DNA of 64,000 bases from a virus, in IMG/VR virus record IMGVR_UViG_3300021375_002698; one strand, given 5' to 3'. Positions within the stretch are counted from its first letter, which is position 1, and the number at the start of each line of letters is the position of its first letter. Below the pieces are notes generated by a model. The model saw only the letters and a list, made by a program, of their open reading frames with translations, made no database searches and was not told where the DNA came from. The position numbers and the translations under genes are program-made. Positions 18,406-39,197 of the stretch are shown piece after piece.

Positions 18406-18433
18406 TTATATAAACCTTTTTTTATTTTATATA

Positions 18434-18838: not shown

Positions 18839-18856
18839 AAAAAAAAAGGAATTTCT

Positions 18857-21781: not shown

Positions 21782-22042
21782 TTACATATCTATATCACCG
21801 CTTATATCACCTAATCCAAAATAATCTAACAAGTCTTCACAAGTTAAATTCATCTTAGCTTGCTCTATATCCAAACTTCCACAGCTATCAATATAATTCA
21901 ACGCTCCCCTATGCAATACCATGCAATCTTCAACTAAAATCGTCAACTCCCTACACTCACTAGTATCTTCTTCTTTTTCCACTCTATCATCATTGCAAGA
22001 AATAAATAAAAACAACAATACAATATATAAAAACCTAAACAT
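21782..22042 (-). CDS. Small Cys-containing lipoprotein
   Basis: Lipobox LFISC. Confidence 0.65.
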   Translation of the reverse strand: MFRFLYIVLLFLFISCNDDRVEKEEDTSECRELTILVEDCMVLHRGALNYIDSCGSLDIEQAKMNLTCEDLLDYFGLGDISGDIDM

Positions 22043-22062
22043 TTCAAAAAACCCTTTATCTT

Positions 22063-22104
22063 TAAATATTAATAAGTTGTTTCTAAATATTAATAAGTTG
22101 TTTC
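22063..22104. repeat. 21-bp tandem duplication
   Basis: TAAATATTAATAAGTTGTTTC x2 upstream of the lipoprotein gene. Confidence 0.85.
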
Positions 22105-22135
22105 TTTTTCACTTCACAAAATAATAAATACCTAA

Positions 22136-22474
22136 TTAACAACCACAAGATTCTGAACATACTTTTTCACAATGAATACACTTACATATCTCGTCTAAAC
22201 ATCTACAACAACCCATAATATCTCCTCTACAGCAGTGTGCACATAATTCAATACAATGAATAGCCATCTTATGATTAGCTTTGCAAATCTTATCACACAT
22301 CTCTATCAATTCTTGTTTGGACATATCACAGCAAAACTTTGCTTTACTCATATTAGTACTAGAATCCACTTCTCTATGATCAAAGTCTCTTTGTAAATAA
22401 TCTTCAGGCATAAATTCAGACTCATTTAATACACTTTTTATAATACTTCTTAACTTACTTTCAGTTATTTTCAT
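22136..22474 (-). CDS. Cys-rich putative metal-binding protein with leader
   Basis: MKITESKLRSIIKSVLNE; 17 Cys in the last about 65 aa, many spaced CxxxC/CxxC. Confidence 0.7.
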   Translation of the reverse strand: MKITESKLRSIIKSVLNESEFMPEDYLQRDFDHREVDSSTNMSKAKFCCDMSKQELIEMCDKICKANHKMAIHCIELCAHCCRGDIMGCCRCLDEICKCIHCEKVCSESCGC

Positions 22475-22522
22475 ATTAATCTCCTTAATTTTTTAATATA
22501 TCTATATATTATCAGCAAAAAA

Positions 22523-22993
22523 TTACATTCTTAATTGCTTTATTTTACCATATGCTCTACTATAATTATTCTTTACCATCTCACAATTACTCTTTATACT
22601 CTCACAAAACGCTAATTTAAACTCTTCATCAACTCGATCAACTAAACGAGAAACCTCAGACTTCCAATACTTCAAACAAGCGTGCGTTGAAGGTAAACTC
22701 TTAAAATTATCCTCACAACCTGATGATAAAGCATCACATATTTTATTCACTTCTTCTCTTGACAAGAACCCAAATCTAATTGAATCAACTAATGTACCGA
22801 AAAATCCTGTACTCACACTCATTAACTTCATTACTTCAACCTTGGAACTAGCACCACTTATCTGATCCTTTGGCACCACAGAAGTCATAGTCTGTTTATC
22901 AATAGGATCAGGACTAGGTCTCATACTATATACGTCTTCACTTATCAAATCTCTCCAACTCTCAACTAATAATCTTGTCTCTTCTTTGTTCAT
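22523..22993 (-). CDS. Hypothetical protein with leader
   Basis: MNKEETRLLVESWRDLISE; AGGAG RBS. Confidence 0.7.
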   Translation of the reverse strand: MNKEETRLLVESWRDLISEDVYSMRPSPDPIDKQTMTSVVPKDQISGASSKVEVMKLMSVSTGFFGTLVDSIRFGFLSREEVNKICDALSSGCEDNFKSLPSTHACLKYWKSEVSRLVDRVDEEFKLAFCESIKSNCEMVKNNYSRAYGKIKQLRM

Positions 22994-23125
22994 TACATTA
23001 ACTCCTAATCAATCTTTATATGCATATAAATATGTTTAATCAATTCAATATGAAAAGTTTAACACAATTAAACGTCGTGACACAGGCGACACCCATCTCG
23101 ATCAAAATTATCAAATATTTCCGAC

Positions 23126-23731
23126 TTAAAATCGACCTCTGTCCATCATGTCTTTTTGACGCGCTTTTTCTTCAGATCTTTCTATACTTAAACGATCTAA
23201 ATGATCTAAATTAGGTTTACCATACTTATTTCCTCTTTTAGTAATTGCTTTGATATCATCGCTATAATGAATCTCTCTAGGATCTGTTCCATGGTAACCC
23301 GGTGCTGATTTATCTACAAAACTTTCGCCATCTAATCTTAACTTATAATGCGTATTACTTCCTGCTTCTTTAAAAACAATAATATTAATCTCACTTTTTA
23401 AGTCGCTATCTTCAATCACAAATAAAGGAATCAAGGCTTTTGACTCATTCTTGTTAGCCCACTTGATATCTTCAACACTATCTGGACTTATTACTATTTC
23501 ATTTGTATTGATTTGTTTACCCTTTAATAATTCTATAAGCTTGTCAGCTTCTTGTTCTCCCGCAATTATACCATGATCAGGAATAAAATCATACTTAAGA
23601 CTTCTTGCTTCAGACTCGCTTATCTCTTTACCTCTTTTACTTAAGTCTATATTACCTCTACTATTTTTACTAGCTGATTCTTTCAATATATTTCTTATAA
23701 TTCTTCTTAATCTACTCTCAGTTATTCTCAT
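23126..23731 (-). CDS. Hypothetical protein with leader
   Basis: MRITESRLRRIIRNILKE; AGGAG RBS. Confidence 0.7.
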   Translation of the reverse strand: MRITESRLRRIIRNILKESASKNSRGNIDLSKRGKEISESEARSLKYDFIPDHGIIAGEQEADKLIELLKGKQINTNEIVISPDSVEDIKWANKNESKALIPLFVIEDSDLKSEINIIVFKEAGSNTHYKLRLDGESFVDKSAPGYHGTDPREIHYSDDIKAITKRGNKYGKPNLDHLDRLSIERSEEKARQKDMMDRGRF

Positions 23732-23802
23732 ATTATCTCCTAATTAATATTTAATATAAATATATATATTCAATCAAATCACAAATATAAATTAAACAAG
23801 CA

Positions 23803-24312
23803 TCAACGTCGTGACACCCGAGACACCCTACTCCACACAGTCGCTTCCCAACCATCACTATCATCAACATACTTTCGCCCAGTATCTACAAATCCAGCAT
23901 TGCTAAACGCTCTCTTAGAAGAAATATTGTCCACACCAATCAACAAATCAGCAGCTTCTCTACCCACAAAAAACTTCGATATCGCAATACTACCTATTCC
24001 TCTAATACTCTCCCTTACTTCACTATCAATATAAATCGCACCCACTCTCCATCCACTTCTTTCTTCTCGAGGTGTCATAAACCCCACTAACTCGCCTTCA
24101 TAATATATTCCCCCTCTTAAACGTCTACTATCATCAGGATATACAAAACCACTTATCTCACCATCTTCATCTCCCTTCATTAACAAATCGCTATCAATAT
24201 CATCAGGATATGCTACTTCAACATCTCCACTAGCAGCTATATCTATCTCTTCTCTTAATAACTTTCTCCATCCCTCAACTAATAGCTTCGTCTCTCTACA
24301 ATTCATGCTCAT
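23803..24312 (-). CDS. GNAT-family acetyltransferase with leader
   Basis: ELVGFM, GAIYIDSEVR..RGIGS, NISSKRAFSNAGF; N-terminus RETKLLVEGWRKLLREE. Confidence 0.8.
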   Translation of the reverse strand: MSMNCRETKLLVEGWRKLLREEIDIAASGDVEVAYPDDIDSDLLMKGDEDGEISGFVYPDDSRRLRGGIYYEGELVGFMTPREERSGWRVGAIYIDSEVRESIRGIGSIAISKFFVGREAADLLIGVDNISSKRAFSNAGFVDTGRKYVDDSDGWEATVWSRVSRVSRR

Positions 24313-24581
24313 AAGTCGCTCTCTTTTCTTTTATCTATATATCAAAAAGTTATTCAAAAGTTCTCCCGAAAATTTTTGACCAAAAACTGAAAATTGGTTT
24401 ATCAAAAAGCGCCGCAAACTACTACGAAAAGCTATTTCTTTTCTTTCTACTCTTATCTATATACGTGACTCGTGGTGTTAGGGTAACGAAGAAAATACTT
24501 TTAAAAGTTGTGAGTGAGGAGAAGCGACAGCCGACTTAGGCGCGGCCCGTGTAAATTACTCACTGAGTTTGATATAATATA

Positions 24582-24631
24582 GGGGGCTTTTTAGGGGCCC
24601 AAAAAGGGCTACTAAGAGCCCCGGGGCTTTT
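24582..24631 (+). other. GC-rich hairpin and overlapping 12-bp palindrome at the transcription divergence point
   Basis: GGGGCTTTTTAG-GG-GCCC-AAAAA-GGGC-TA-CTAAGAGCCCC; palindrome AGCCCCGGGGCT at 24617-24628. Confidence 0.8.
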
Positions 24632-24950
24632 GGCCTAGTGTAAAATTTAAAATTTAATTGATATAATCATCATGTAATAAATAATAAATAATAAAATTAT
24701 TTAAAATAAAAAAAATAAAAAATAAAAAAATTAAATATTATAAATCAGATATTAATATTAAATGTGTATTTTTAAAATATAATATATATAATATCAATAT
24801 AATAAATAATAAATAAAAAAATTATTTAAAATAATAAAATTAAATATTATAAAACTATAAAGATAGGAAATGAAGGAAAACGAGTGTAAAACGATGAGAT
24901 CAGATAATACAATCATTATGTAATTAATTAATATCTTTGAAAGGATATGT

Positions 24951-25622
24951 ATGAAACATCCACTAATACAAACTGTAATTGATAATGCTGAAACAAGAAA
25001 ATTCCTTAAAGATCTATTCGAAAAGAATTTATCTGAGGGTAAAGATAAAACTTCTGTTTTAAGATTTGGGGAAGCCTTGATTGATATATTGAAAGATGAA
25101 GTCGGTTCATTAAAAGGAAAACGTGTAACATCTGGAGATACGGGTTGGCGAACTGAAATAAAATCAATGTTTTCGGGACGAGGAAGACAATGGATTAAAG
25201 TTGGAATTGATAAGGTGACACCGAGATTGGATAAATTTGATGAGGATGGAATTGACACATCAGAATATCGAAAATGGATTAAATCTAAGGATTATGCATG
25301 GATTAGATTTAATGGAGCTCGAATTAATGATGGTGTAAATTGTGGAGGATTTGAGATAAGAACATCAGGATCCAAAATCGATCATCCGAAACAGTTATGT
25401 TATATACCGATGGATGAACTCAGTGAGGATAAAATCGAAAGATTATCAGGAACTCCCCATTCTATGAGTTTAGAAGTTATAACAGAAAAAGTTGAAGAGG
25501 AAACGATTGAGGAAACGATTGAGGAAAACACGAATCTGGACGAAGAGATTGATACAGAGGAAACAACTGGGGAAGTTACGAATGAAGACGAAGTAGATGA
25601 AGAAGATATATACTCTGTGTAA
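24951..25622 (+). CDS. Novel 'GRG/AWxRF/GSKxDH' family protein, copy 1, acidic tail
   Basis: MFSGRGRQW, YAWIRF, RTSGSKIDHP, GTPHSMSLE. Confidence 0.85.
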   Translation: MKHPLIQTVIDNAETRKFLKDLFEKNLSEGKDKTSVLRFGEALIDILKDEVGSLKGKRVTSGDTGWRTEIKSMFSGRGRQWIKVGIDKVTPRLDKFDEDGIDTSEYRKWIKSKDYAWIRFNGARINDGVNCGGFEIRTSGSKIDHPKQLCYIPMDELSEDKIERLSGTPHSMSLEVITEKVEEETIEETIEENTNLDEEIDTEETTGEVTNEDEVDEEDIYSV

Positions 25623-25652
25623 TTAGGGTTTGGGTTGGGGATTGATGGATAA

Positions 25653-25745
25653 ACGACGATTAGATAAATGATTTGAAGTTACGATGATTAGATAAATGAT
25701 TTGAAGTTACGATGATTAGATAAATGATTTGAAGTTACGATGATT
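25653..25745. repeat. 28-bp tandem repeat (3.3 copies) upstream of a promoter
   Basis: ACGATGATTAGATAAATGATTTGAAGTT at 25653, 25681 and 25709, plus a partial copy. Confidence 0.95.
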
Positions 25746-25843
25746 CGTATCGTCAAACGTGTAAAAATTTGATTCTTTAATGTATAATATACATGTAAGG
25801 AAGGAAACAATATTTCAAGCAACATCACGATGAAAGGTTTAAT

Positions 25844-26089
25844 ATGATTTTTGTTTCAGTTGTACAACGTGGATATACAGAGTCGCAGTTATATGGTCCA
25901 TTTAAAACAGTTGAAGAAGCGCGTCATGAATTTACTGATAGTGTTACACGAGGAGATGATGGTGACGAAACGAAGTATACATTTTTTGAAGTTAAAAATG
26001 AAGTGATGAAAGAAGTTGGATATGTTTTGTTTTACGATGAGTGTGATGATAAAGATGATTTTAAGGAAGAATATTTTCTAAACGTGTAA
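25844..26089 (+). CDS. Hypothetical protein, paralog of 41025-41246
   Basis: LYGPFKTVEEA...FFEV..VGYVLF; stop lies inside the next GTGTAA. Confidence 0.75.
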   Translation: MIFVSVVQRGYTESQLYGPFKTVEEARHEFTDSVTRGDDGDETKYTFFEVKNEVMKEVGYVLFYDECDDKDDFKEEYFLNV

Positions 26090-26159
26090 TTTATGAAGTT
26101 GTTATATTATAATAACGATGTAAGGATAATTAATCAATTAACGACGAGAGGTTTATTTT

Positions 26160-26243
26160 ATGGATATTTATGGAATTTTATTAACAATCACAGTGACACT
26201 TCCAATGGCTGGGTTTATCTATCTGTTCTTGTTTGAACAATAA
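26160..26243 (+). CDS. 27-aa single-TM peptide (not in ORF track)
   Basis: MDIYGILLTITVTLPMAGFIYLFLFEQ behind promoter 26084 and a GAGG RBS. Confidence 0.6.
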   Translation: MDIYGILLTITVTLPMAGFIYLFLFEQ

Positions 26244-26305
26244 ACGTTGTTTTGAGTTGTCATATTGAAAATATTTTTTAACTACTAACATTAGATGAGT
26301 GAGGT

Positions 26306-26494
26306 TTGTGTATGTTGATTTATAAGATCCAGGCATTTTTGATTGTATTGTTTTTGTCTATATCTTTTCTTGGGTGTATATGTTTAGCTTATGATGCATA
26401 TCTAGGTGACGAAGTTAATGTTGTGTGCTCTGGAGAGGTTTCAAGGAAAGACTGTGATGAGTATAAAGAGACTATTCGTAATCTTGATAGATGA
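26306..26494 (+). CDS. Small membrane protein
   Basis: Hydrophobic N-half; GAGG RBS; stop supplied by the repeat element. Confidence 0.6.
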   Translation: MCMLIYKIQAFLIVLFLSISFLGCICLAYDAYLGDEVNVVCSGEVSRKDCDEYKETIRNLDR

Positions 26495-26525
26495 CTTGAT
26501 GTTACAAGGTTAGGATACGTCATCT
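26489..26525 (+). repeat. Promoter-upstream structured element, best copy
   Basis: AGATGAC-TTGATGTTACAAG-GTTAGGATAC-GTCATCT; related copies at about 26847, 27215, 28444, 28978, 29806 and 25725. Confidence 0.9.
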
Positions 26526-26655
26526 GTGATGTGTAAAATTTATTAATTAAATATTATAATCACCATGTAATAAATAATAAATTATTTAAAAATTAAATAA
26601 AAAAAATATTAATTATTATAAATCTTTAAAATTTATAAATCTGAAAGGATTTAAT

Positions 26656-26850
26656 ATGAGTTCTGTTAAAATTCGTCAAGTATACATTGAATATCGTGAT
26701 ATGTCTGTTAGAGAGTTCGGTTATGACTCTTTTGTAAAAGCTTTATCTCAATTCGTGACAAGAAACGCAGATTTAGGAGATATTGCGATTGCATCTCAGC
26801 TTGCTTACCGTTATCTTACTGAGCAAAGACAACATGATTATATAATTTGA
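26656..26850 (+). CDS. Hypothetical protein
   Basis: Own promoter and GAAAGG RBS. Confidence 0.75.
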   Translation: MSSVKIRQVYIEYRDMSVREFGYDSFVKALSQFVTRNADLGDIAIASQLAYRYLTEQRQHDYII

Positions 26851-26946
26851 TGTGACAAGGCTTGGATACGTTCATCAGCGATGTGTAAAATATAAATTTA
26901 AAATATTATAATATTTATGTAATTAAGGAAAAACGAAAGGCACTAT

Positions 26947-27033
26947 TTGTTAACTAAAGCACAAACTGTTTGCTTTGATATTGTTTTATTAATAATGTTA
27001 ATTACAGTTTTAGTATATATATTATCAACTTAG
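26947..27033 (+). CDS. 28-aa single-TM peptide (not in ORF track)
   Basis: TTG start after GAAAGG; MLTKAQTVCFDIVLLIMLITVLVYILST. Confidence 0.5.
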   Translation: MLTKAQTVCFDIVLLIMLITVLVYILST

Positions 27034-27049
27034 ACTCACGAGTAAATTT

Positions 27050-27235
27050 ATGTTCAATTTATCTAAAGACTTAGTTTCGTTATCATTTAAAGTTAATAAA
27101 CTAAGTTTTATGCAAACAGTATTTTTTGGTTTTAAATTATCAGTCAATCTTTTTGTTCTATCATTTCTGGTATCATTACCTTTTTACATTATTTCTAATG
27201 CTGCTGTGTTTATTGATTTGATGTTACAAGGCTAG
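27050..27235 (+). CDS. Small membrane protein
   Basis: Hydrophobic; last codons DLMLQG* are read from the repeat element. Confidence 0.6.
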   Translation: MFNLSKDLVSLSFKVNKLSFMQTVFFGFKLSVNLFVLSFLVSLPFYIISNAAVFIDLMLQG

Positions 27236-27330
27236 GATACGTCATCTGCGATGTGTAAAATTTAATTTTTAATTGATATAATCTTTATGTAATTAAGGAT
27301 TTAATATAAAATAATCTGAAAGGATTTAAA

Positions 27331-27645
27331 ATGCAGGTTTTAAAAAATACAGCTAATAAAACGGGTTTTTTAAATAAGACTGTTGAACAACAAATCGAAG
27401 CGTTAGCTGAAGATTTTTGTAACGGTATGGACTACGGTTATAAAATCGATTCAGTAAAAAAAGGCAAGAATGGCTTTTACACTGTATCAGTTGTTTGTCC
27501 AACTGGAGCTATGGCTGGTGTTTGTTTTATGTGGAACCCTGAAACTCAAACTGATTATTACCTTGGTGAGCCTATAGGCAATGAAACTTTTGAAATTCAC
27601 CCAGCACTTTTCGAAGATTTCAAAGATTATGTTGTTAACGTGTAA
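27331..27645 (+). CDS. Hypothetical protein
   Basis: Own promoter and RBS; stop lies inside the next GTGTAA. Confidence 0.8.
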   Translation: MQVLKNTANKTGFLNKTVEQQIEALAEDFCNGMDYGYKIDSVKKGKNGFYTVSVVCPTGAMAGVCFMWNPETQTDYYLGEPIGNETFEIHPALFEDFKDYVVNV

Positions 27646-27718
27646 TAAATTATTTGGTGTGATATAATTTTTATGTAATCAAGGATACAAACTAAAACAA
27701 TCTGAAAGGATTTAAAAT

Positions 27719-27928
27719 ATGGAATTTACGTATGAATCAGTTAACGATGCTTTAAATCGTCATCATCATAATCTTTCTGGTTACTGGTCTACTCTAGGCT
27801 GGGACGATAACATTGCGACGGTAGGTTATATGATGGAAGATGGAACTGAAGAAGACGTTACTGTAGATAAACAAGGAATTGTGCATGCTTCAGAAAAAGT
27901 AATGGCAGAGATGCAAGATATAGGTTAA
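27719..27928 (+). CDS. Hypothetical protein, paralog of 30418-30627
   Basis: EFTY.S.N..L..HH.NL...W..LGWD..IATV.Y...EDVT.D.Q..V.ASEK.M. Confidence 0.8.
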   Translation: MEFTYESVNDALNRHHHNLSGYWSTLGWDDNIATVGYMMEDGTEEDVTVDKQGIVHASEKVMAEMQDIG

Positions 27929-27997
27929 CCTACATCGTGTAACTAAGTCTCTATTTGTTTTATAATTAATCACCACCCGCCAATAGAAGGATTCAAT

Positions 27998-28441
27998 ATG
28001 AATTTATCTCAATTAATTAAAAATGCTAAACCAATAAATGATACCACAGTGTTAGGATCAGTCTGGACTGATAATAAAGATTTCTGTTCAACAGAGATGC
28101 TGAAGTCTGGCGAACAAATGTTAACTGATATGGTTGAGTGTCAAGATCTCATTGCAACCTTAGACATCGCAGAAAAAACAAATGTTTCAATACCAAAACT
28201 ATCAGCGAAATTAATTAAACAAGATGATGACTGGGATTTTATCAAAGTAACGATTGAAAGCAAAATACCTGATGAATTTGCTAATCTCATGTGGGATATT
28301 CAAGAAGGTCGTTTCCCATCTTTGAGTTATCGTGAGAAAAAAAGTGAGTATATTACAACAATCAGAACAACATGGAGAATGGATAAATATATTTTATCTG
28401 CTGAAGATAATGTTAATATTATTAATGCAACCTTATCTTAA
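27998..28441 (+). CDS. Hypothetical protein
   Basis: Own promoter and GAAGG RBS. Confidence 0.75.
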   Translation: MNLSQLIKNAKPINDTTVLGSVWTDNKDFCSTEMLKSGEQMLTDMVECQDLIATLDIAEKTNVSIPKLSAKLIKQDDDWDFIKVTIESKIPDEFANLMWDIQEGRFPSLSYREKKSEYITTIRTTWRMDKYILSAEDNVNIINATLS

Positions 28442-28563
28442 TTGATTCGAGTCGTCAAGGTTAGGATACGTCATCTGCGATGTGTAAAATTTAATTTTTA
28501 ATTGATATAATCTTTATGTAAATAAGGATTACAATAACATTTTTAAAAGTAAAGGTATTTAAT

Positions 28564-28983
28564 ATGGAAAACGTTTTATCACTATTTAATATCAATCCTA
28601 AAAACCCAACGCTTTGCGAAACAACAACTCTGGGCCAAGCGAAACGAGGAAATCGTCAGTTTTATGATACTCATCACAAAGTCTCATACATTACATATTT
28701 AAACGGATATGTTCGCCGGGAAATTAAAGCAACCTACGTTTCACCTTATACAACAAGTCAAATATCTTATAAAGTTCAAGATCAGTTCGTTATTAACAAA
28801 AGAACAGCTACAAAACAAACATATAAAGCGCCTAACGGATATGAATACTCATACACATCAACTGGAGTTATCAAAGAGCCTTGTGCCCAAAAGCGAATGG
28901 ATATCATCGATCATCACTCATCTAACTACAGAGGATATAAAGGTCGATTCGCTAAACCAAATTATACTCTAATCTCTAGATGA
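28564..28983 (+). CDS. Basic hypothetical protein, paralog of 31865-32269
   Basis: Shared Y.D..Y..GYVRR.IK...IN motif. Confidence 0.8.
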   Translation: MENVLSLFNINPKNPTLCETTTLGQAKRGNRQFYDTHHKVSYITYLNGYVRREIKATYVSPYTTSQISYKVQDQFVINKRTATKQTYKAPNGYEYSYTSTGVIKEPCAQKRMDIIDHHSSNYRGYKGRFAKPNYTLISR

Positions 28984-29014
28984 CTTGATGTCGCAAGACT
29001 AAGCAACGTCATCT
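28978..29014 (+). repeat. Promoter-upstream structured element, diverged copy
   Basis: AGATGAC-TTGATGTCGCAAG-ACTAAGCAAC-GTCATCT; stems kept, loops changed. Confidence 0.85.
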
Positions 29015-29096
29015 CTTAAGTGTAAAATTTAATTTATAATTGATATAATCTTTATGTAAATAAGGATTCAATCCAAAATAATCTTAAAGGATTAAT

Positions 29097-29474
29097 ATGA
29101 CTACTAAAGACTTACTAAACTCTACGTATTTTCAAATCGATTATCGATCTCTCCCTTCTGGCATCGGTCATATCAACTACGAAAGTGGTGACGTCGTTCT
29201 TGTTACTGAATCTGATTCAGGTCCTAAAGATATGGAATGCGCAAGAAAAGTTATTCGAGAAGAATATCTTCCATCTTCAATTGATCACATCCCATTCAGT
29301 ATGGGTGAGTATTGGGAAGCAGGCCAAGCAGCACTTGAAGCTATCTTAGAAACTCATGATGTTAAATATGTTATCGACTCTGAATTGTCTTATGAAGTGG
29401 AAGAAGATCTTGTAGAAGATATGGAATATCATATCTTTACACTGCAAAACTGGCTCAAAGCTAGAGCAGCCTAA
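29097..29474 (+). CDS. Acidic hypothetical protein
   Basis: Own promoter and RBS. Confidence 0.75.
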   Translation: MTTKDLLNSTYFQIDYRSLPSGIGHINYESGDVVLVTESDSGPKDMECARKVIREEYLPSSIDHIPFSMGEYWEAGQAALEAILETHDVKYVIDSELSYEVEEDLVEDMEYHIFTLQNWLKARAA

Positions 29475-29500
29475 CAAATTTACAAACAAAGGGTTTTATT

Positions 29501-29776
29501 ATGGATCATTTCAGTTTATATGGCAAAGATCAAATTGGGATTTGTAAAGATCATGAGCGTATATTAGAATTCGCTGATTGTATTTTATTATACGGCTACG
29601 CAATAAAAAGTGAGAATATAATTAAAGATATGAATAAATTTATTGACAATTGTTTAACAAAGCTACTAAGCGATAACTTAAACGATGGATGTCTTGTGTT
29701 AGACACTAAACGTGATTATGGAATGTTTAAAAACAAAATACAATTAAATAAAATATTGTTAGAGAGTGTTGTTTAA
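29501..29776 (+). CDS. Hypothetical protein
   Basis: ORF with AAGGG RBS. Confidence 0.65.
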   Translation: MDHFSLYGKDQIGICKDHERILEFADCILLYGYAIKSENIIKDMNKFIDNCLTKLLSDNLNDGCLVLDTKRDYGMFKNKIQLNKILLESVV

Positions 29777-30020
29777 AATAACGTAGTATCAAGCTTATAC
29801 AATAAATGACTTGATGTAACATCGCTTAGAGTCGTCAACGTGTAAATTGTTAAGTTAATTTTGTATAATATAAATTGCATATTATCAGCAATAGAATTTT
29901 TTACTATTACTTTTATTATTTGAATTGTAGATAATGTGAGCAATAAATTTTGTGTAAAATTTAATTTTTAATTGATATAATCATCATGTAATAAATAATA
30001 AAGATGGAAGGATTTAAAAT

Positions 30021-30296
30021 ATGGCTTCAATACGTACAACAAACATCGGAGATATTTTAACCATTAAAAAGATTGCTCAATACAATAAGATCTTAACAAA
30101 TCACAGCGATCATCCTGAATGTGTTTATCCTAAAGTTACAGATGTTAATAGAATTTTAACAGTAGGTTCAAATTTAACTGTCATAGCTAAGGGAAAGTGT
30201 GAAACAAAGTGGGCAGAATCATACGTTACTGTTAAAGATCACAATAACAATTCTTTCGATATCTTATCCAGCGATTTGCGAAGATTCTGCAAGTAA
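30021..30296 (+). CDS. Hypothetical protein
   Basis: Own promoter and RBS. Confidence 0.75.
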   Translation: MASIRTTNIGDILTIKKIAQYNKILTNHSDHPECVYPKVTDVNRILTVGSNLTVIAKGKCETKWAESYVTVKDHNNNSFDILSSDLRRFCK

Positions 30297-30417
30297 CTCT
30301 CATTGTGTAAAATTTAATTTTTGGTTGATATAATCACCATGTAATTAATAATAAATTATTTAAAAATAATATTAATTATATAAATCTTTAAAATCTATAA
30401 ATCTGAAAGGATTTAAT

Positions 30418-30627
30418 ATGAAATTTGAATTTACTTATAACTCTATTAATCATATTTTATATAATCATCATCCTAATCTATGTTCATGGATGTCTTTAGG
30501 ATGGGATAAAAAAATTGCTACTGTACAATACAAACTGAAAGATAATACTGTTGAGGATGTCACAATCGATCGTCAAGCCAATGTAACTGCATCAGAAAAG
30601 TTAATGGTTGAGATAAATGAAAGATAA
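30418..30627 (+). CDS. Hypothetical protein, paralog of 27719-27928
   Basis: Full-length alignment with 27719-27928. Confidence 0.8.
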   Translation: MKFEFTYNSINHILYNHHPNLCSWMSLGWDKKIATVQYKLKDNTVEDVTIDRQANVTASEKLMVEINER

Positions 30628-30706
30628 TAACTTTTAAAGTGTAAAATTTAATTTTTGGTTGATATAATCATCATGTAATTAATAATAAATCTGAAAGGAT
30701 TTAAAA

Positions 30707-31459
30707 ATGGATAATTTAAATAATAAAGATTCTAACTCTAACTCTAACATCCACGAGGTTCTTATGAGCAACGAAACTCAAATCATCGAATTATTTCAGT
30801 CTTTTCTTTCTAACGGAGGCTCTCCTAAAGTTACAAGCTTTAAAAAGCATCTTGATTCACTCATTAATTCAAACATTAAACCTCTTTGCGTTCGTTCTGG
30901 AAAAGCACCAGACGGAGATGATTGGAGATCGGTGCTCAAAGCTTTATTCGGAGGTCGAGGTAAAAAATGGGTTCAAGTCTCTATAGATAACATCATTCCA
31001 ACTCTTGATCAATTTGACGCTGAATATTATGACACTTTAAAATACAGAGAGTTTATTAAAACTGCAGGATTCGCTTGGATTCGTTTCGCCGGTCCTAGAA
31101 TGGATATGAATATCCAATCAGCTGCTTTCGAAGTTAGAACTAACGGATCTAAAATTGATCACCCTAAACAACTCCATTATATCCCAGTAGATAAAATTGA
31201 AGAGCTCACTGTTACTTTAAACGGAACTCCTCATTCACTAAAACTAGAATCAAACAACACTGAAGTTGAAACTGAAACTGAAACTGAAGTTGTAACTGAA
31301 ACTGAAGTTGTAACTGAAGTTGAAACTGAAACTGAAACTGAAACTGAAACTGAAACTGAAGTTGAAACTGAAACTGAAGCTGATTCAGAATACACAATAG
31401 AAATGTTAGATGAAGACTTCTCAGACTTATATACAGATGAAGAGCTATTTAACGTATAG
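30707..31459 (+). CDS. Novel 'GRG/AWxRF/GSKxDH' family protein, copy 2, ET-repeat acidic tail
   Basis: LFGGRGKKW, FAWIRF, RTNGSKIDHPKQL, GTPHSLKLE. Confidence 0.85.
   Translation: MDNLNNKDSNSNSNIHEVLMSNETQIIELFQSFLSNGGSPKVTSFKKHLDSLINSNIKPLCVRSGKAPDGDDWRSVLKALFGGRGKKWVQVSIDNIIPTLDQFDAEYYDTLKYREFIKTAGFAWIRFAGPRMDMNIQSAAFEVRTNGSKIDHPKQLHYIPVDKIEELTVTLNGTPHSLKLESNNTEVETETETEVVTETEVVTEVETETETETETETEVETETEADSEYTIEMLDEDFSDLYTDEELFNV
31259..31381. repeat. Hexamer (GAAACT/GAAGTT) microsatellite encoding Glu-Thr repeats
   Basis: Direct reading of the sequence. Confidence 0.9.
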
Positions 31460-31592
31460 AATGACGTTATCATGCATTTCTTGATTAATATCATTGTTTA
31501 AAAGATATCAGGTAATGATATTAAATGTGTAAATTAAAATGACTACTTATTATAATAACAATGTAAATCAAATTAAAAAAGGATTTTTCTTA

Positions 31593-31799
31593 ATGTTTTA
31601 TTCTCATCTACAATCATTTGCGATTGGAATTATCATCGCTTCTATAACATTTGTAATGTTTCTTCATCACAAAGAAAGCGAGGCGCAAATTAAAAAGACA
31701 AATGAAATGATTAAATATACTAAAGACGTGTGTATAAATCAAAGACCCAAGAATACAGAAACAAAACTTTGCGAGTTCTTAAAAAAGAAGTATTTATAA
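31593..31799 (+). CDS. Small membrane-anchored protein
   Basis: Start moved to MFYSHL after AAAGG; one TM helix. Confidence 0.65.
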   Translation: MFYSHLQSFAIGIIIASITFVMFLHHKESEAQIKKTNEMIKYTKDVCINQRPKNTETKLCEFLKKKYL

Positions 31800-31864
31800 G
31801 TGTAAATACAATCTTAATTTAATATAATTCATATAACAGCTAATTTAATAAAGGCATAAAATTT

Positions 31865-32269
31865 ATGTTTAATACAAAACAATTCACTGATGTTACTTCT
31901 GACAAACAACGACGAAGTGGAACAACATGTTACAGAGATAATAAAAATCCAGGCGTATTCTATACTTCACATTCAAGCGGTTATGTTCGTAGAGTAATCA
32001 AACTGAAGTCTGAACGTATTAACAATTTAACAAATGAAAAGAAGACTAAAGAAATTCATACAAAATATCATATCAATCCATCGACTGTGAGCACTCATGA
32101 AAGTAACGACAATAAAAAATCAATCAGCATTATGCTTCCAACAGAAAACATGCGTTTAAATCGAATTCAAACGCAAGCTGATAAGTTTAATAAAAAACGA
32201 TTTGTTGCTAATTCGTCATGCGTTGTAATTAGAGATGACGAAATTATTATTACAACAATTGACGTATAA
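31865..32269 (+). CDS. Basic hypothetical protein, paralog of 28564-28983
   Basis: GYVRRVIK motif. Confidence 0.75.
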   Translation: MFNTKQFTDVTSDKQRRSGTTCYRDNKNPGVFYTSHSSGYVRRVIKLKSERINNLTNEKKTKEIHTKYHINPSTVSTHESNDNKKSISIMLPTENMRLNRIQTQADKFNKKRFVANSSCVVIRDDEIIITTIDV

Positions 32270-32316
32270 AGGTTAAACTTGTACTTGATATTTGTTACAA
32301 TACAAATATTAAATAT

Positions 32317-32389
32317 GGGCAGTTAGCCAAGCGGTTAAGGCTCCGGTCTCATAAACCGGCGATCCTCGGTTCAAATCCGAGACTGCCCA
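32317..32389 (+). tRNA. tRNA with CAT anticodon (elongator Met or Ile2); no encoded CCA
   Basis: Acceptor GGGCAGT/ACTGCCC; anticodon arm CCGGT-CTCATAA-ACCGG; T arm CTCGG-TTCAAAT-CCGAG. Confidence 0.92.
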
Positions 32390-32444
32390 CTTATTTATCT
32401 AGTCTTTTAGATGAATAAATTAAATATCTTATGAAAGGTTCATT

Positions 32445-32684
32445 ATGAATAAAGAAATTTTTAATACATATAAATCTCTAATAGTTTCAAATACTGTTGA
32501 TGCTATTAGAGAATCTAAAAATACAAACAAATGTTTAACTGAAGTATTATGCTCAAATCATAATAAAAGTACTGATGTTTACAATCAGTTAAATAAACAA
32601 ATGGTTTCATCAAGCAATCCTAACTATCCTTCTAAATCTGGCAATCCTAGCGGTCCAGGCAGAGGTAATTCTCCTAAGAAGTAA
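32445..32684 (+). CDS. Hypothetical protein inside the tRNA cluster
   Basis: GAAAGG RBS; C-terminus NYPSKSGNPSGPGRGNSPKK. Confidence 0.7.
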   Translation: MNKEIFNTYKSLIVSNTVDAIRESKNTNKCLTEVLCSNHNKSTDVYNQLNKQMVSSSNPNYPSKSGNPSGPGRGNSPKK

Positions 32685-32739
32685 AACATAAACAAGGTAA
32701 ATTCTTATCTACAACCTTCAATAAAATGTAGATACACAT

Positions 32740-32811
32740 GCACTCGTAGCTCAGTGGAAGAGCAGTGGCCTTCTAAGCCATTGGTCGTAGGTTCAAATCC
32801 TACCGGGTGTA
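32740..32811 (+). tRNA. tRNA-Arg(TCT); no encoded CCA
   Basis: GCACTCG/CGGGTGT; GTGGC-CTTCTAA-GCCAT; GTAGG-TTCAAAT-CCTAC. Confidence 0.95.
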
Positions 32812-32908
32812 CTAAGTTTCATATAACTTTTATTTCTATACAAAAATATAAAATAAATTAATAGCTGATGGTGGTACATTAAACTATTACTTATATGAAA
32901 CTCCTTAA

Positions 32909-32981
32909 GGATTGTTAGCTCAATCGGTAGAGCAGTGGACTTTTAATCCATTGGTTCTGGGTTCGAGTCCCAGACGATCCA
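32909..32981 (+). tRNA. tRNA-Lys(TTT); no encoded CCA
   Basis: GGATTGT/ACGATCC; GTGGA-CTTTTAA-TCCAT; CTGGG-TTCGAGT-CCCAG. Confidence 0.95.
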
Positions 32982-33019
32982 ATCATATAAGTCATCTTAA
33001 CTAAAAAAAGGAAATCTTT

Positions 33020-33304
33020 ATGAAAGATATCAATTTACCTGATAATATCTCACTTATCAACAAAACAATAAATTGCTTCAATCATCAATACCCAAACTTC
33101 GATGCGCTTGATGTTGATGATTTCTTCTCAAATGACTATAAACAATATCACTATCAGGCTTTCATCTCTGATAACGGAAACGTCACACTTGAATTCCCAA
33201 TAACTGCAGACTCAAACCCAGCTTCTATAGTCATATCAAAAGAATCAAAAACAATCAAAACTAATCACTCTTTCAAAAAAGAACTAGAAAGAGTAAATAG
33301 ATAA
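33020..33304 (+). CDS. Hypothetical protein
   Basis: AAGG RBS. Confidence 0.7.
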   Translation: MKDINLPDNISLINKTINCFNHQYPNFDALDVDDFFSNDYKQYHYQAFISDNGNVTLEFPITADSNPASIVISKESKTIKTNHSFKKELERVNR

Positions 33305-33754
33305 CGAATCACTTATTTTTTAGTCTCTCACCCCCTGCAAAACTAGATAAAATACAGCGCTACTCAAAACAGAACTGCCCTCAAAATAATTCACGCTCCA
33401 CAAACTTCTACTACCCTTCGTATCGTCAAACACTTCTCACGTAATTCTGTGCTGCCCTATCTAATTTAACACTATCACTTCCAACACATATAACACTCTA
33501 TCTACTTTCACATAGATCTAGTCGCAAAGAATAAAATGATAACAATAATATCCACTATAAATAACACAATTTTCTACTCTACATTCATTCTTGTAGGTAA
33601 CTCATTCCTCTATAACGAATACAATCAACTTCATCTATCAGTACTAATCATAACATCAGTTATAGACGCAACTATAGACTAATCCACTACGTGTAATTTT
33701 AATAACTATATTGTTATAATAACAATGTAAATACCCAATATAAAAGGATAAATT

Positions 33755-33982
33755 ATGGAAAATTACTTGATTTATGTTTACAATATCTGCTGGCCTTCAA
33801 CAGATAAACACGCTTTCTACAACTGCAAAAACATTCCCACTCACTCTTATGTGAAAATACCAAAAGATACTTTCTCTAACGACACAGAACGAAATGTCTT
33901 CATTGACTTCATTCTTCTTAATAACACGGGAATAAAACCCCTCACATACACATACTCTCTTGAATATGTCTGCCACCTCTAA
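33755..33982 (+). CDS. Hypothetical protein
   Basis: Own promoter (33691) and RBS. Confidence 0.7.
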   Translation: MENYLIYVYNICWPSTDKHAFYNCKNIPTHSYVKIPKDTFSNDTERNVFIDFILLNNTGIKPLTYTYSLEYVCHL

Positions 33983-34000
33983 ACAGAAAGGTTTTCAATC

Positions 34001-34231
34001 ATGAATCCAATTATCAAAGTCAAAGGTACTGACGGTACTCTATACACTGTCTTCACTTCTCACATTATCTTCTACGAAAGCGTTTCAAAACCTTACTATG
34101 ATTCCGAAGAACACACATGGCGAGATTCCGAAGAAGGGTCAATCATACACCTATCTAATAACTTCAACCCTATCAAAGTTACTCAAACTAAAGATGAATT
34201 AGATAAACAAATCAACACTTTAATAGAATAA
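34001..34231 (+). CDS. Hypothetical protein
   Basis: GAAAGG RBS. Confidence 0.7.
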   Translation: MNPIIKVKGTDGTLYTVFTSHIIFYESVSKPYYDSEEHTWRDSEEGSIIHLSNNFNPIKVTQTKDELDKQINTLIE

Positions 34232-34665
34232 AAAACAATAAACAGCTACACTCAGCATCAAAACGTTTCGCGCGCCTTGTCCTGTGTTGTAGTTTGAGAT
34301 ATACATCTGTGTATCTGGTTTAGCGTCTGTAAGTGTTTTGATAAGAGTATGATAAAACATATTGTATTGTTTTTAGAGTGTATCTGAGTTTAAGTTGTAC
34401 CATTTGTTATTTATGATGTAGTATTATTTGCAGGAGTTAGTGAGTGATATGTGTTATAAGTGTTTGTTATATTGGTTGAGTGTATTTGGAGTATATTTTG
34501 TATTGTATATGTTATTGGAGATATTATATAGTTGAGATTTATTTTTAGTTTCTTTTGAAGGGTTTAAAGATGAATAATATTAGTGTGTAATATATTGTTT
34601 ATGTATATTATAATATAGTTGTGGGGAAGGAAATAATAATTTTAACTGCTTTTGAAAGGTTTGAT

Positions 34666-34998
34666 ATGAAGATTATAGTTGCTTGGAAATTTGGATTGAG
34701 AGATCGTGCTGCTAATGGCGAGTTAAAGAATCATTATATTTCTAATGTTCATGAATATGATGATTTAGATTCTGACGAGAAAGAGATGTTACATGATGCA
34801 TATGCAAAAGCTATTGGAGTTCCTGTTACTATTGACTTGAAAGAGTTATTTAATCATCTTGCTACTTTTGAGTTAGAACATTTGTCTAATTACAGTATAC
34901 ATGATGCTTTGCATTTGAAGTACTGTTGGGAAGTTGATGGTTTTTTAAAGTTAGATGAAGACGAAGACTATGGAGACAGGTGGAATAAATTAAATTGA
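34666..34998 (+). CDS. Hypothetical protein (start corrected)
   Basis: ATG after the conserved leader element. Confidence 0.75.
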   Translation: MKIIVAWKFGLRDRAANGELKNHYISNVHEYDDLDSDEKEMLHDAYAKAIGVPVTIDLKELFNHLATFELEHLSNYSIHDALHLKYCWEVDGFLKLDEDEDYGDRWNKLN

Positions 34999-35059
34999 TT
35001 GAGAGAATATAAGTGTTGGAAGGAAATAATATTTTTAACTGCTTTTGAAAGGTTTTATT

Positions 35060-35242
35060 ATGGTTGACAATAATGAAGAGAATAGAGTTAAGTTAGCTGA
35101 CAAGGTATTTGAGAATATGGATAAAGATGAGATTAGATTATTAGCTTATAAGAGTTTATTGAAGATTTATATTCATAGTCCTGTTGTTTTTGAGCATGAT
35201 TGGAATCAAGAGTTTTCTGATGTTATTGATTTAAGTGAGTAG
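35060..35242 (+). CDS. Hypothetical protein (start corrected)
   Basis: ATG after the leader element. Confidence 0.7.
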   Translation: MVDNNEENRVKLADKVFENMDKDEIRLLAYKSLLKIYIHSPVVFEHDWNQEFSDVIDLSE

Positions 35243-35276
35243 ATTTTATTTTTAACTGCTTTTGAAAGGTTTAAAC

Positions 35277-35630
35277 ATGAAAATCTTAAATATAACTGGA
35301 TATAGTTTTAGTAATCCTGACCGGGTTTTTTATAATGGTGTTAGTGAAGCTGAAATGTTGAATAAGTTAGGCTTAGTAGACGGTAGAACTCTTGAGAATA
35401 GTTTGATTAGTCATTTAACTGACTGGGTTAATTACAAGAAGATTTTAGATAGTTTTAAAGAAGAGGGTTTTACTCATATTACAAATGATGATGATTCTGT
35501 GAATATTATTCATGGTAATAGAGAAGCTTTGCTTGAAGATCCTATAGATAATGAGATTCAGCGTGCGAGCAAGGGAATAGAACATGTATTATCTCTAGGC
35601 AGAATTGATTCTACACAATTAGACTTTTGA
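35277..35630 (+). CDS. Hypothetical protein (start corrected)
   Basis: ATG after the leader element. Confidence 0.75.
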   Translation: MKILNITGYSFSNPDRVFYNGVSEAEMLNKLGLVDGRTLENSLISHLTDWVNYKKILDSFKEEGFTHITNDDDSVNIIHGNREALLEDPIDNEIQRASKGIEHVLSLGRIDSTQLDF

Positions 35631-35659
35631 TTTTTTTAACTACTTTTGAAAGGTTTAAC

Positions 35660-36723
35660 ATGAAATACTTTTTTTTTTACTTTCTTCGAGTGCTTTTTGT
35701 AAAGAAAAGATAACATCACATATACAAGCAAATGAGTTTTCTATAGTTGAGCAAATTGTTATAAGAGATAATTTTAATTTATCTCTTCATAAGCTGTTTG
35801 GTATGAAGTATAAGATTTTAACTAGTGAAACAGTATATGAAGAGATAAAAAAGTCAAATTTAAAAATTGAATATGATCAGCAAGAATGTAATTTAAGTTT
35901 AGCAAAAAAACTAAAAGCAAAGTTTTCTTTTATTATTAAAGTTAGAAAAGCAAACAAAAAATATTATACTGTAATAGAGCTTTACAGAATAAAAGATAAT
36001 GTTTTAATAGACGGATTTAAAGAAAGTTTTACAGCAAGTAAGAAAAATAGAATGAAGCGCCTTAGTAATGTAATAGAAAAAAATATTTTTAAGTTTAAGT
36101 CTAAACTTCTACAAGTTAAATTTTTAGTTAACAAAAAGATTAGTAACAAAAAGATTAGTAACAAAAAGATTAGTAACAAAAAGATTAGTAGCAAAAAGAT
36201 TAGTAGCAAAAAGATTAGCAGACTACGAACTACATTGAGTGACTTAAAAAAGTATTATCTAGGAAATAGTAGTAAAGATTATAGTAAAAGTTTAAAAAAA
36301 GAGTATTCTGATGTTTTATTTGAAAATAACGTTATATACTCTTTGCTTATAGTCGCAGGAATTACTTTTACTATTAGCGGTTTAGTTTTATTAAAAAAAG
36401 CTAAAGAAGATATAAGCAGCAATCAAGAAGTTAATTCTATTATTTATCGTAATGGTGAAAAGAAAAAAGTTGTTAGTAGTGTTTTTTTATTTACTGGGTT
36501 AATAACAATTATTACTAGCGTAGCATTTTCTTTGGAGTGTAATAATTTTATAAAAAATGTTTATGAGAACAAATATTTTTTAAATGAAAATAAAACAAAA
36601 ACTTGCTTATATAATTCAAATAAAATGAACAGAAAGCTTAATGTTAGTGTTAAAGACAGTATTAGATTTAATTTAAAAGCAAATCGAAAAAGTCTTCAAG
36701 GACTTATTACTTTTAAGTTCTAA
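35660..36723 (+). pseudogene. Secreted/membrane protein frameshifted at a T10 tract (phase-variable or sequencing error)
   Basis: ATG 35660 after the leader stops after 17 codons; the 35803 frame is open back to T10 at 35669-35678 and reads LLSSSAFCKEK. Confidence 0.65.
36130..36219. repeat. 15-bp tandem repeat x6 (KKIS[N/S])
   Basis: AACAAAAAGATTAGT x4, then AGCAAAAAGATTAG(T/C) x2. Confidence 0.95.
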
Positions 36724-36847
36724 TAGCTTTAGAGCTTCAAAGAGAAAGTTGGTAATTCACGTGTAAATAATTTATAATATATTGTATAATATAAGTGTGG
36801 AGAAGGAAATAATAATTTTATTTTTAACAGCTTTTGAAAGGCTTAAT

Positions 36848-37108
36848 ATGAGATATGAAAATGAAACAGGCAATAGAGCTTTGGGCATGTATGTTAATTC
36901 AGAACATGTAGATGTGTCTAAAGAACTTTTGATTGACATAATTCAGCAAATTGTAAAGAACTGTTATAATGATGGCTTTGATGAAATATGTTCTGATGAT
37001 CATGCTGTAGTAGGAATGATTAAATTATTTATGGATGTTGCTGATGAAACAGGATATCATAGATTACAAAGCGACTTGCAAAAGTTGTATACACATTATG
37101 ACATATGA
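36848..37108 (+). CDS. Hypothetical protein, recent duplicate of 41696-41974
   Basis: GNRALGMYVNSEHVDVSKEL identical in both copies. Confidence 0.85.
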   Translation: MRYENETGNRALGMYVNSEHVDVSKELLIDIIQQIVKNCYNDGFDEICSDDHAVVGMIKLFMDVADETGYHRLQSDLQKLYTHYDI

Positions 37109-37557
37109 GGGTCAACATTATGAGAAAGCATATTGCATTTTTAGTTTTTGCACCGTATGGTGATTCTTCTAGTCAAGTTAATGAAGAAAAGAATAAGAAG
37201 TTGATGATAGAGCTTAAAGAAGGTTATTATAACAATCCTAGGCTTTTTGGTCCTGGGCTTAGTCATAGCGTAAGATTAGATAGATTGATATCGTTAGTTA
37301 GAGATAAGAATGGAGAAGACGTTTTAAATACACATACGTTTTGGTATGCGAATACGTTGAAGGATAATTATGAGAAGAGTGGAGTAGTACCTTGGGATGA
37401 TGTTTGTGAATGTATTTATCACCCTAGCAAGAGTGAAGATCAAGAAAGAGTAGAGATGTCTGATGAAGATTTTGATAACATGTGGAGAAACGAAATAGCT
37501 ATGGAAACTGGGATGTTATATGGAATAGATGCGTATAACGACATAAGAGGATATTGA
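37105..37557 (+). CDS. Hypothetical protein
   Basis: ATGA overlap; C-terminus AMETGMLYGIDAYND.RGY. Confidence 0.7.
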   Translation: MRVNIMRKHIAFLVFAPYGDSSSQVNEEKNKKLMIELKEGYYNNPRLFGPGLSHSVRLDRLISLVRDKNGEDVLNTHTFWYANTLKDNYEKSGVVPWDDVCECIYHPSKSEDQERVEMSDEDFDNMWRNEIAMETGMLYGIDAYNDIRGY

Positions 37558-38204: not shown

Positions 38205-39197
38205 ATGAAAAACAATGCTGTTTGTTCTTTTATTCTAAATATTGCTATTTTACAATTTACTGGTTGCTCTTCCTTAGTAGACTCTGGACCAGAGCCGCTT
38301 TCTAAAGAGGAGTTTGTAAAAGAAATTACTACAAATATTTTAAGAAACATTGACAAAGAAAATGAAGTTTCTATCAATGTTTCGCAATTAGAAAAAGAAG
38401 AGAATGGTTCCATTGGGTCAAAGGGTGAAACAGGTCCAGTAGGTGAAACAGGCCCAAGAGGTGAAACAGGTCCAAGAGGTGAAACAGGTCCAAGAGGTGA
38501 AACAGGTCCAAGAGGTGAAACAGGTCCAAGAGGTGAAACAGGTCCAAGAGGTGAAACAGGTCCAGTAGGTCCAGCGCCTAACATTGAAGAAATACTCTCA
38601 GAATTACAATTGCAAAACAATACACAACAATTGCCACAAGGTCTTGAACCTTTCTCAACATATAAAATAACAGATGAAGGTGAGATTGTTGGAAAGTTAA
38701 TTAGCAGATATCATAATTTTAGAAGATACAGCTACAGCACAGACCAGCATACAATGGACATGTGTGAAAACTGGAACATTGCAGTTTATAATGAAGAAGA
38801 ACAGCAGGTTAAGAAAATTCATTTTGATACATGTATTAATCAAAAACTTTCAACTTACATGGGATGGGATCCTTGTAGATCTTATACAGGATGGTGGAAG
38901 CGACATTCTAATTCATACTTGCAAGAATATACAACACCAGAAAATGCAAGATGTTCTCATGAGGTTACAGGTGAAAGAGACAATACTTATGAATACTTCA
39001 AAGACATAATGCAAAGATGGGTCATGTCAGCAGGTAAGCATATTAAATTAAACAATTCTTACTATAAAGTCACAGATACTGAAAGAGTTTATACTGAATT
39101 TGTAAATGGTTCGAATACAGTTGGAGTTCCTCACAAACTTGTCCTTATTTTAGAGTATGTTGGTGAAGAAATAGAAGGTAATGAGTATATTCATTAA
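38205..39197 (+). CDS. Collagen-like repeat lipoprotein
   Basis: Lipobox FTGC; Gly-X-Y run of GETGP(R/V) encoded by an 18-bp tandem repeat at about 38423-38572. Confidence 0.85.

Follow-up and report, generated by a model that had tools for sequence, protein, structure and literature searches.

Two conserved skew switches bounding a putative immediate-early gene module of an uncultured marine giant phage

Two skew switches and the segment between them

The 64,000-nucleotide (nt) DNA analysed here (the window; IMG/VR virus record IMGVR_UViG_3300021375_002698) contains two sites, designated P1 (~24.46 kb) and P2 (~34.28 kb), at which the plus strand switches abruptly from C-rich to G-rich. The 9.7-kb stretch bounded by these sites is best explained as an immediate-early cassette module, of the host-takeover type, of an uncultured marine giant phage and, tentatively, P2 and probably also P1 can be read as origin-like initiation zones that bound this module rather than as ends of virion DNA. 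The paired feature is real, conserved and unusual and, in the best reading available, the two sites look more like points at which unwinding starts than like the ends of a repeat. A first-pass annotation of this DNA had preferred a long terminal repeat and offered two origins as an alternative; the alternative is the better of the two, as it fits a mirror-image compositional gradient around P2 and a weaker one around P1, whereas the preferred reading gained no positive support.

The base counts on which that annotation relied are exact (23 C and 1 G at 24001-24060; 17 C and 5 G at 33421-33480; 17 G and 0 C at 34441-34500), and both switches are readily confirmed. In 200-nt windows, the skew changes from -0.74 (24.0-24.2 kb) to +0.24 (24.5-24.7 kb) at P1 and from -0.44 (33.8-34.0 kb) to +0.84 (34.4-34.6 kb) at P2. 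An unbiased scan places the two largest C-to-G jumps of the entire window at 34328 and 24464, and the cumulative skew, proposed earlier as a check, has minima at 24-25 kb (P1, the global minimum in the window) and at 33-34 kb (a local minimum). Genes are on the minus strand to the left of 24.5 kb and on the plus strand to the right, and the flip at P1 coincides with divergent transcription. At P2, the open reading frames (ORFs) are on the plus strand on either side, at 33020-33304, 33536-33682, 33755-33982 and 34001-34231 to the left and from 34621 onward to the right, and the earlier argument that coding bias does not explain this switch stands. The protein encoded by ORF 33755-33982 is kept in a relative (56% identity).

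The features of the region, with strand and basis, are:

21782-24312, minus: end of the leftward gene block, its last 2.5 kb, with a strongly G-rich coding strand and a C-rich plus strand (ORF skew)
24313-24950, no strand: P1, a gene-free divergent control region with the first skew flip (no credible ORF; conservation)
24538-24544, plus: first AGGCGCG copy, in a GC-rich block that immediately precedes the first early promoter (pattern count)
24549-24578, plus: first early promoter, GTGTAA, 18 nt, TATAAT (pattern scan; position kept in relatives)
24583-24637, plus: GC-rich hairpin cluster ending in CCCCGGGGCTTTTGG, 3' of the first early promoter (consensus fold)
24638-24913, plus: three more early promoters and an A/T tract of 10-16% GC (pattern scan, composition)
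24951-34231, plus: segment S, the putative immediate-early cassette module, ~30 small ORFs with nearly one promoter per gene (promoter scan, ORFs)
32317-32981, plus: transfer RNA (tRNA) genes Met-CAT, Arg-TCT and Lys-TTT (ARAGORN, Rfam)
33020-34231, plus: right end of the segment, rich in C and poor in G, with four small plus-strand ORFs and an ORF-poor stretch (skew)
34232-34620, no strand: P2, a single-copy conserved non-coding element with the second skew flip, ~390 nt free of ORFs (11-genome alignment)
34271-34277, minus: second AGGCGCG copy, which overlaps box a of P2 (pattern count)
34274-34282, 34317-34340 and 34400-34409: box a, a box-b-like stretch and box d of P2, respectively
34585-37557, plus: R1, the first 3 kb right of P2, with an extremely G-rich, C-poor sense strand (promoters, leaders, skew)

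Promoters of the form GTGTAA-N17/18-TATAAT occur 37 times on the plus strand, between 24549 and 53005, and almost never on the minus strand; 20 are within 24549-33691 and 17 more are between 34.6 and 53 kb. None of the 11 segment ORFs tested has a match in Pfam or PHROGs, and an Rfam search of the window returned nothing beyond the three tRNAs. The ORFs in 33020-34231 have third-position skews of -0.70 to -0.86. An ORF-poor stretch of 231 nt (33305-33535; 68 C, 19 G) separates a small gene of this region from the promoter that follows. Its beginning (33303-33381) is 78% identical to the sequence in a relative (REL, IMG/VR contig 3300030118_007125), and the stretch may serve in Rho loading or encode a small RNA.

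The window has a GC content of ~29%. Megablast found no close relative of the 24-36 kb region among 50,697 sequenced phage records, and protein searches gave identities of only ~30%, to helicases of giant phages. Proteins encoded in the window include a PhoH/PIN protein, a helicase, an ATP-dependent ligase and tail-fibre-like proteins. The relatives were found among marine metagenome and IMG/VR contigs, which derive from Tara and JGI samples; because one of these, 53.5 kb long, is rated 21% complete by CheckV and another, L129, is part of a 277.8-kb contig, the lineage is taken to consist of uncultured marine giant phages. A further relative, L130, is located on a 100-kb contig. The layout with two flips is also present in REL, L129 and L130, with segments of 9.1, 7.3 and ~5 kb, respectively, and P2-type skew jumps are present in more than ten further contigs. 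P1 and P2 are each unique in a genome, and their non-coding DNA is kept despite differing flanking genes in the relatives, in which the gene content of the segment is shuffled and the two-boundary layout retained.

Silent-site gradient and the architecture of P1 and P2

When the plus-strand genes of eight non-redundant genomes are pooled, their four-fold degenerate sites reveal a mirror-image gradient in base composition centred on P2, with the following values:

Last 5 kb left of P2: C increases from 0.08 to 0.26 and T decreases from 0.48 to 0.39
Last two 1-kb bins left of P2: skew -0.56 and -0.61, positive in 0/7 and 0/8 genomes, respectively
First kb right of P2: G 0.36, A 0.25, skew +0.90, positive in 7/7 genomes
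Second kb right of P2: G 0.18, skew +0.65, positive in 5/5 genomes
Third kb right of P2: G 0.10, skew +0.35
Baseline further right: C ~0.05, G ~0.08, A ~0.38

The corresponding mirror at P1 is weaker, with a top-strand C of 0.15-0.16 to the left and a G of 0.17 to the right. Intergenic DNA has skews that agree, -0.11 in S, +0.41 in R1 and -0.34 in the leftward block (L). In one homologous gene family, with 71-74% amino acid identity, third-position skew is -0.65 for the member in S versus +0.74 to +0.85 for those just right of P2; in a second family the values are -0.44 versus +0.22 at 85% identity. As intergenic DNA has the matching skew and homologues change their skew with position, the asymmetry is positional and conserved and is not a property of gene families; the same two observations rule out codon-usage class alone as its cause. 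Most clearly at P2, it is the strand that runs 5'-to-3' outward from each site that is enriched in G at silent sites. This gain is at the expense of A to the right of P2 and of T (plus strand) to the left, and it decays over 2-5 kb. With C already near its floor, the signal takes the form of G gained from A and, on the other side, C gained from T. The polarity of the enrichment is that of the leading strands at a bidirectional origin and also that of the coding strands at divergent promoters.

In an 11-genome alignment, P2 consists of boxes a (GCYTWRTC), b (GACGTTAACGCTGTTTTGGTTTTTTT), c (GAGAAGT) and d (TTYGGCCACTTGTTG), with invariant columns in a, b and d. A T run follows box b in the relatives. 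Box d is present once per locus, which rules it out as a reiterated promoter. A structured RNA or intrinsic terminator at P2 was considered and rejected, as there are no consensus pairs on either strand and single-sequence folds are not significant (z-scores in 9/10 folds). The lack of a conserved RNA fold in a sequence that is conserved and unique points to a site that functions as DNA. When IMG/VR was scanned with the 14-mer AACAGAACTGCCCT and with a box d 15-mer, most matches were attributable to chance, and only 6 of the box d 15-mer matches carry the full P2 element. In many relatives, ~60 nt to the left of box a, there is a -35-like hexamer (TTGAAA or GTCAAA) followed by one of two alternative palindromes, the Fur-box-like TGATAATGATTATCA or ATGAATCGCTATTCAT (L129:11560-11600; L130:10490-10530; L122:6430-6465; L152 ~1990-2030). 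The palindrome is absent from the window and from REL. The combination looks like a repressible promoter with a swapped operator specificity.

To the right of P2, R1 has promoters at 34585 and 36761 of the unchanged class. The change of leader family across 34.3 kb noted in the first-pass annotation is real; leaders with TTTTAACTGCTTTTGAAAGG, designated family D14, begin at 34625. Genes in R1 have skews of +0.30 to +0.64, positive even at codon position 2, and in the relatives the mean third-position skew to the right of P2 is +0.58 (65 genes). In most relatives, the first gene to the right of the jump encodes a protein with a lipoprotein-type signal peptide and a lipobox, for example LWSGC or LATGC (L129:11790-11880; L142:1905-2000; L134:2375-2450; L152:4200-4300). 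The first gene right of P2 in the window is unrelated to this gene.

P1 consists, in order, of the conserved leader of the leftward genes, the GC-rich block with AGGCGCG, the first early promoter, the hairpin cluster, further promoters and the A/T tract. Its non-coding DNA is kept in REL, L129, L130 and L173, including TTCTCCCGAAGTTTTT and CACTGAGT. The consensus fold of the hairpin cluster, based on five genomes, has two hairpins with 16 pairs, 4 of them with compensatory changes, and only three other stretches of the window reach 63% GC over 30 nt. To the left, the region 21782-24312 contains five minus-strand ORFs with coding-strand third-position skews of +0.23 to +0.79 and, at four-fold sites on the coding strand, a G of 0.18 and a C of 0.03; in the relatives the coding strand to the left of P1 is likewise G-rich. 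The leftward block has no GTGTAA promoters. Two of its genes have, at their 3' ends, CACGACGTT followed by GTTGATGCTTGTTT (23071-23079 and 23805-23813, minus strand), closely resembling box b of P2 in the relatives (CACGACGTTGATGCTGTTTTGG), and the two may represent a common 3'-end or termination element. In L129, L130 and L173, the second early promoter right of P1 is followed by ~150 nt of conserved, GC-rich sequence without ORFs (L129:4380-4560; L130:5975-6150; L173:200-360, minus) that could encode a small RNA. This stretch has no match in Rfam, and an Rfam search found nothing at P1 or P2 of L129.

Adenine and cytosine deaminate faster in single-stranded DNA. The outward strand may spend extra time single-stranded and gain G at its silent sites, and a bidirectional replication-initiation zone with a late start of lagging-strand synthesis would leave the outward strand in this state. 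A more specific proposal, possible but doubtful, is that short-range strand-displacement or R-loop initiation occurs at P2, and more weakly at P1, and generates the mirror-image A-to-G gradient in silent sites and even in amino acid usage, as a footprint that is conserved in the lineage and moves with the P2 element where genes are reordered. Promoter-primed R-loop origins are known in T4, and the arrangement at P1 of a promoter, a structured GC-rich stretch that would be present in the RNA and then, in this genome, an A/T tract recalls such origins. In vertebrate mitochondrial DNA, silent sites have gradients that reflect the time spent single-stranded. The resemblance is in a graded enrichment of the A-to-G type on one strand that scales with distance from an initiation point, but the replication machinery is different and, in the phage lineage, the gradient is mirrored about a point in a double-stranded DNA genome. 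GC-skew minima at bidirectional replication origins are familiar from bacteria. In huge phages they are routinely taken as origins, in ~30% of the genomes (PMC7162821). Like such origins, P1 and P2 are both minima of the cumulative skew and, at P2, the change of sign from C to G, from -0.61 to +0.90 over eight genomes, is independent of gene orientation. The asymmetry here is, however, local (2-5 kb), with two points 5-10 kb apart and an A/T tract, prone to unwinding, that is not conserved.

Several observations weigh against origin-like initiation zones. The skew does not extend along a whole replication arm; the silent-site asymmetry is back at baseline within 2-5 kb, and distant gene blocks are approximately neutral at four-fold sites. 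No iterons, DnaA-type boxes or initiator gene were found at P1 or P2, no repeats beyond the single boxes were seen at P2 and no initiator was recognised among the neighbouring ORFs. Two origins separated by only 5-10 kb would be unusual, and the A/T tract at P1 is present only in the window and REL, with the GC-rich ORF-less stretch in its place in L129, L130 and L173. L152 and L139 keep a skew jump where two genes meet without a P2 element between them; the element is 2 kb upstream, together with one G-rich gene, and every model has to assume a recent rearrangement in these two. Polarised substitution spectra from three close triplets had too few alignable sites right of P2 to be informative there. 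Selection at the level of RNA or antisense transcription could also yield an identical pattern.

Transcription and terminal repeats as alternatives

Selection on RNA would make P2 the boundary between an immediate-early and a delayed-early transcription unit, with a C-rich zone for Rho loading to the left and C-depleted, Rho-resistant RNA to the right and in the leftward block. This seems unlikely, but a number of features are in its favour. The RNA preferred by Rho is unstructured, rich in C, poor in G and 70-80 nt long (PMC6407284), and Rho is described as silencing phage DNA (PMC3526286). Within the 31-kb plus-strand block (24.5-55.6 kb), 78-nt windows that resemble Rho sites, with 18 or more C and no more than 5 G, are found only at 33.02-34.22 kb, and the untranslated 340-nt leader right of P2 (34281-34620) has 13 C versus 75 G. 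The leader family switches at P2, box b of the relatives is similar to the element at the 3' ends of leftward genes and precedes a T run, and the -35-like hexamer and alternative palindrome upstream of P2 in many relatives are as expected of a repressible promoter. Silent-site GC content is also elevated on both sides of P2, which is more easily achieved by adding C or G than by deamination. Conversely, the C-rich zone consists mostly of translated ORFs, on which ribosomes would block Rho, the gradient extends 5 kb to the left of P2, the promoter class does not change across P2, and a stable terminator hairpin is predicted in none of 10 genomes. Genes in discordant orientation, which would separate mutation from selection on RNA, are not conserved among the relatives. 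The one verified, encoding an OMP decarboxylase homologue (18857-19495, plus strand), has the plus-strand skew of its neighbours rather than a G-rich sense strand, a weak and, in effect, uninformative point against RNA selection given that its skew of -0.30 is near baseline.

Immediate-early/delayed-early boundaries controlled by termination or antitermination are exemplified by tR1 and nut of lambda, with Rho, and by the early terminator of T7. P2 resembles these in being a unique, conserved cis element between co-oriented early blocks, with C-rich, G-poor RNA before it, a T run inside it and, in relatives, an operator-like palindrome. It differs in that there is no conserved terminator hairpin or nut- or put-like fold, the promoters on both sides are alike and an antiterminator gene was not identified.

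Transcription could also act through mutation. If P2 had, in addition to a rightward promoter, an unrecognised leftward one, for example for a late sigma factor, antisense transcripts would run across the last early genes, and the minus strand, being the non-template strand, would be exposed. The gradient has the polarity expected of divergent transcription, which is really present at P1, and the leftward block, lacking GTGTAA promoters, would have to be driven by a second promoter class. Near P2, however, there is no minus-strand promoter of the known class, a scan with the sigma-70 consensus gave nothing above chance, and box d, being unique, does not provide a reiterated promoter motif. Antisense transcription would, in addition, have to exceed sense transcription from ~20 strong promoters, and we regard this explanation as improbable.

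The reading preferred in the first-pass annotation was that P1 and P2 are virion DNA ends or terminase cut sites of a collapsed long direct terminal repeat, the segment being present twice per virion as in T5, SPO1 and Twort-like phages. A length of 5-9.7 kb and early genes without recognised relatives, transcribed from strong host-type promoters, do match known long repeats (T5, 10.2 kb; SPO1, ~13 kb; Twort-like/Kayvirus, ~7.6 kb), which likewise consist of ~10 kb of small early genes beside an oppositely transcribed block. In phage K, no genes are expressed earlier than those in the terminal repeat (PMC11598898). Both boundaries are conserved sites present in single copy and, in the window genome, each has a short inverted GC-rich word, AGGCGCG. 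This word occurs, as first described, exactly twice in the window and in inverted orientation, with 0.22 copies expected and two copies reached in 3/100 shuffles; any GC-rich 7-mer in common with the P1 window was found in 4/1587 windows of 160 nt. The longer match claimed, ACAG..GAC..AGGCGCG, requires three gaps, and the inverted similarity is no better than chance. In local alignments of P1 with the reverse complement of P2, the true pair ranked from 333rd to 1208th of 2000-3000 windows in all four genomes that have both points. The inverted word is confined to the window genome and is not kept in the three relatives with both points (REL, L129 and L130). At the position of the first copy, relatives have AAGGCCGCGG, CCAGGCCCAG or CTTGGCCCAG; the P1 and P2 counterparts are AAGGCCGCG versus AAGGCTCCG in REL and CCAGGCCCAG versus CTAAGCTCGAG in L129. 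A consensus at the family level, CGACTWAG(G)C, can be seen at P1 as well as at P2, and by our estimate about one match of 8-9 nt is expected by chance between two 150-nt blocks. In Twort-like phages, the repeats are bracketed by 12-bp inverted repeats (PMC7596081); the window's inverted word is, by comparison, only 7 nt long, statistically weak and not conserved.

Annotated repeat boundaries in T5 (10,219 bp) and SPO1, used as positive controls, do not reproduce the flip, and the parallel drawn with these phages fails in this respect; skew at their boundaries does not exceed ~0.3 in magnitude and tracks gene strand, with no flip beyond it. Nor would a flip be predicted at a repeat boundary, because end-resection or end-invasion would expose one and the same strand on both sides. 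The largest asymmetry is, moreover, on the outer, unique sides of the segment and decays away from it, which such models would not predict, and the early promoters continue for 19 kb past P2, to 53 kb, far beyond the block. In three of 19 contigs, the end is no more than 75 nt from box d, as a terminus might be, and L173 and L174 break off within promoter repeats, 200-450 nt to the right of P1. Contig ends are weak evidence of termini, as strain-level graph branching accounts for the ends near box d and for those of L173 and L174. The 16 of 19 contigs that continue across P2, with 400 nt or more to either side, are neutral, as a collapsed repeat would assemble alike. A terminal repeat is, we consider, hardly likely.

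Other genes and implications

A paralogous protein family has four members in the window, encoded at 24951-25622, 30707-31459, 50837-51388 and 53062-53679. The first two, the members tested, have no match in Pfam or PHROGs, and REL has two copies of the family, 61-75% identical to these first two members. The 250-amino acid ORF at 30707-31459 contains an in-frame tandem repeat (31241-31408) of ACTGAA/GTTGAA units of 12 or 18 nt, and a 306-amino acid ORF (35803-36723) contains six in-frame tandem copies of a 15-nt unit (36114-36233). Plus-strand genes with Pfam matches are also present within the leftward block, at 14901-19495. These and one further match are:

14901-15698, plus: C39-like peptidase (Pfam, E 1.6e-14)
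16097-16939, plus: nucleotide cyclase, weak match (Pfam, E 1.2e-4)
18857-19495, plus: OMP decarboxylase family (Pfam, E 4e-16)
38205-39197: collagen triple-helix repeat in a 330-amino acid ORF of the early block (Pfam PF01391, E 1.8e-9)

Whichever cause applies, a skew flip together with a short inverted word does not constitute evidence for a terminal repeat, as T5 and SPO1 have such repeats without such flips. If selection at the RNA level were responsible, it would mean that phages tune their base composition to control termination by the host. Should P1 and P2 be initiation zones, sequence alone would suffice, through the silent-site gradient, to locate replication origins and to read their local mechanics in uncultured giant phages, which are closed to experiments and, were initiation of the short-range type to apply, the gradient would be a mutational footprint like that of the mitochondrial D-loop in a double-stranded DNA phage.

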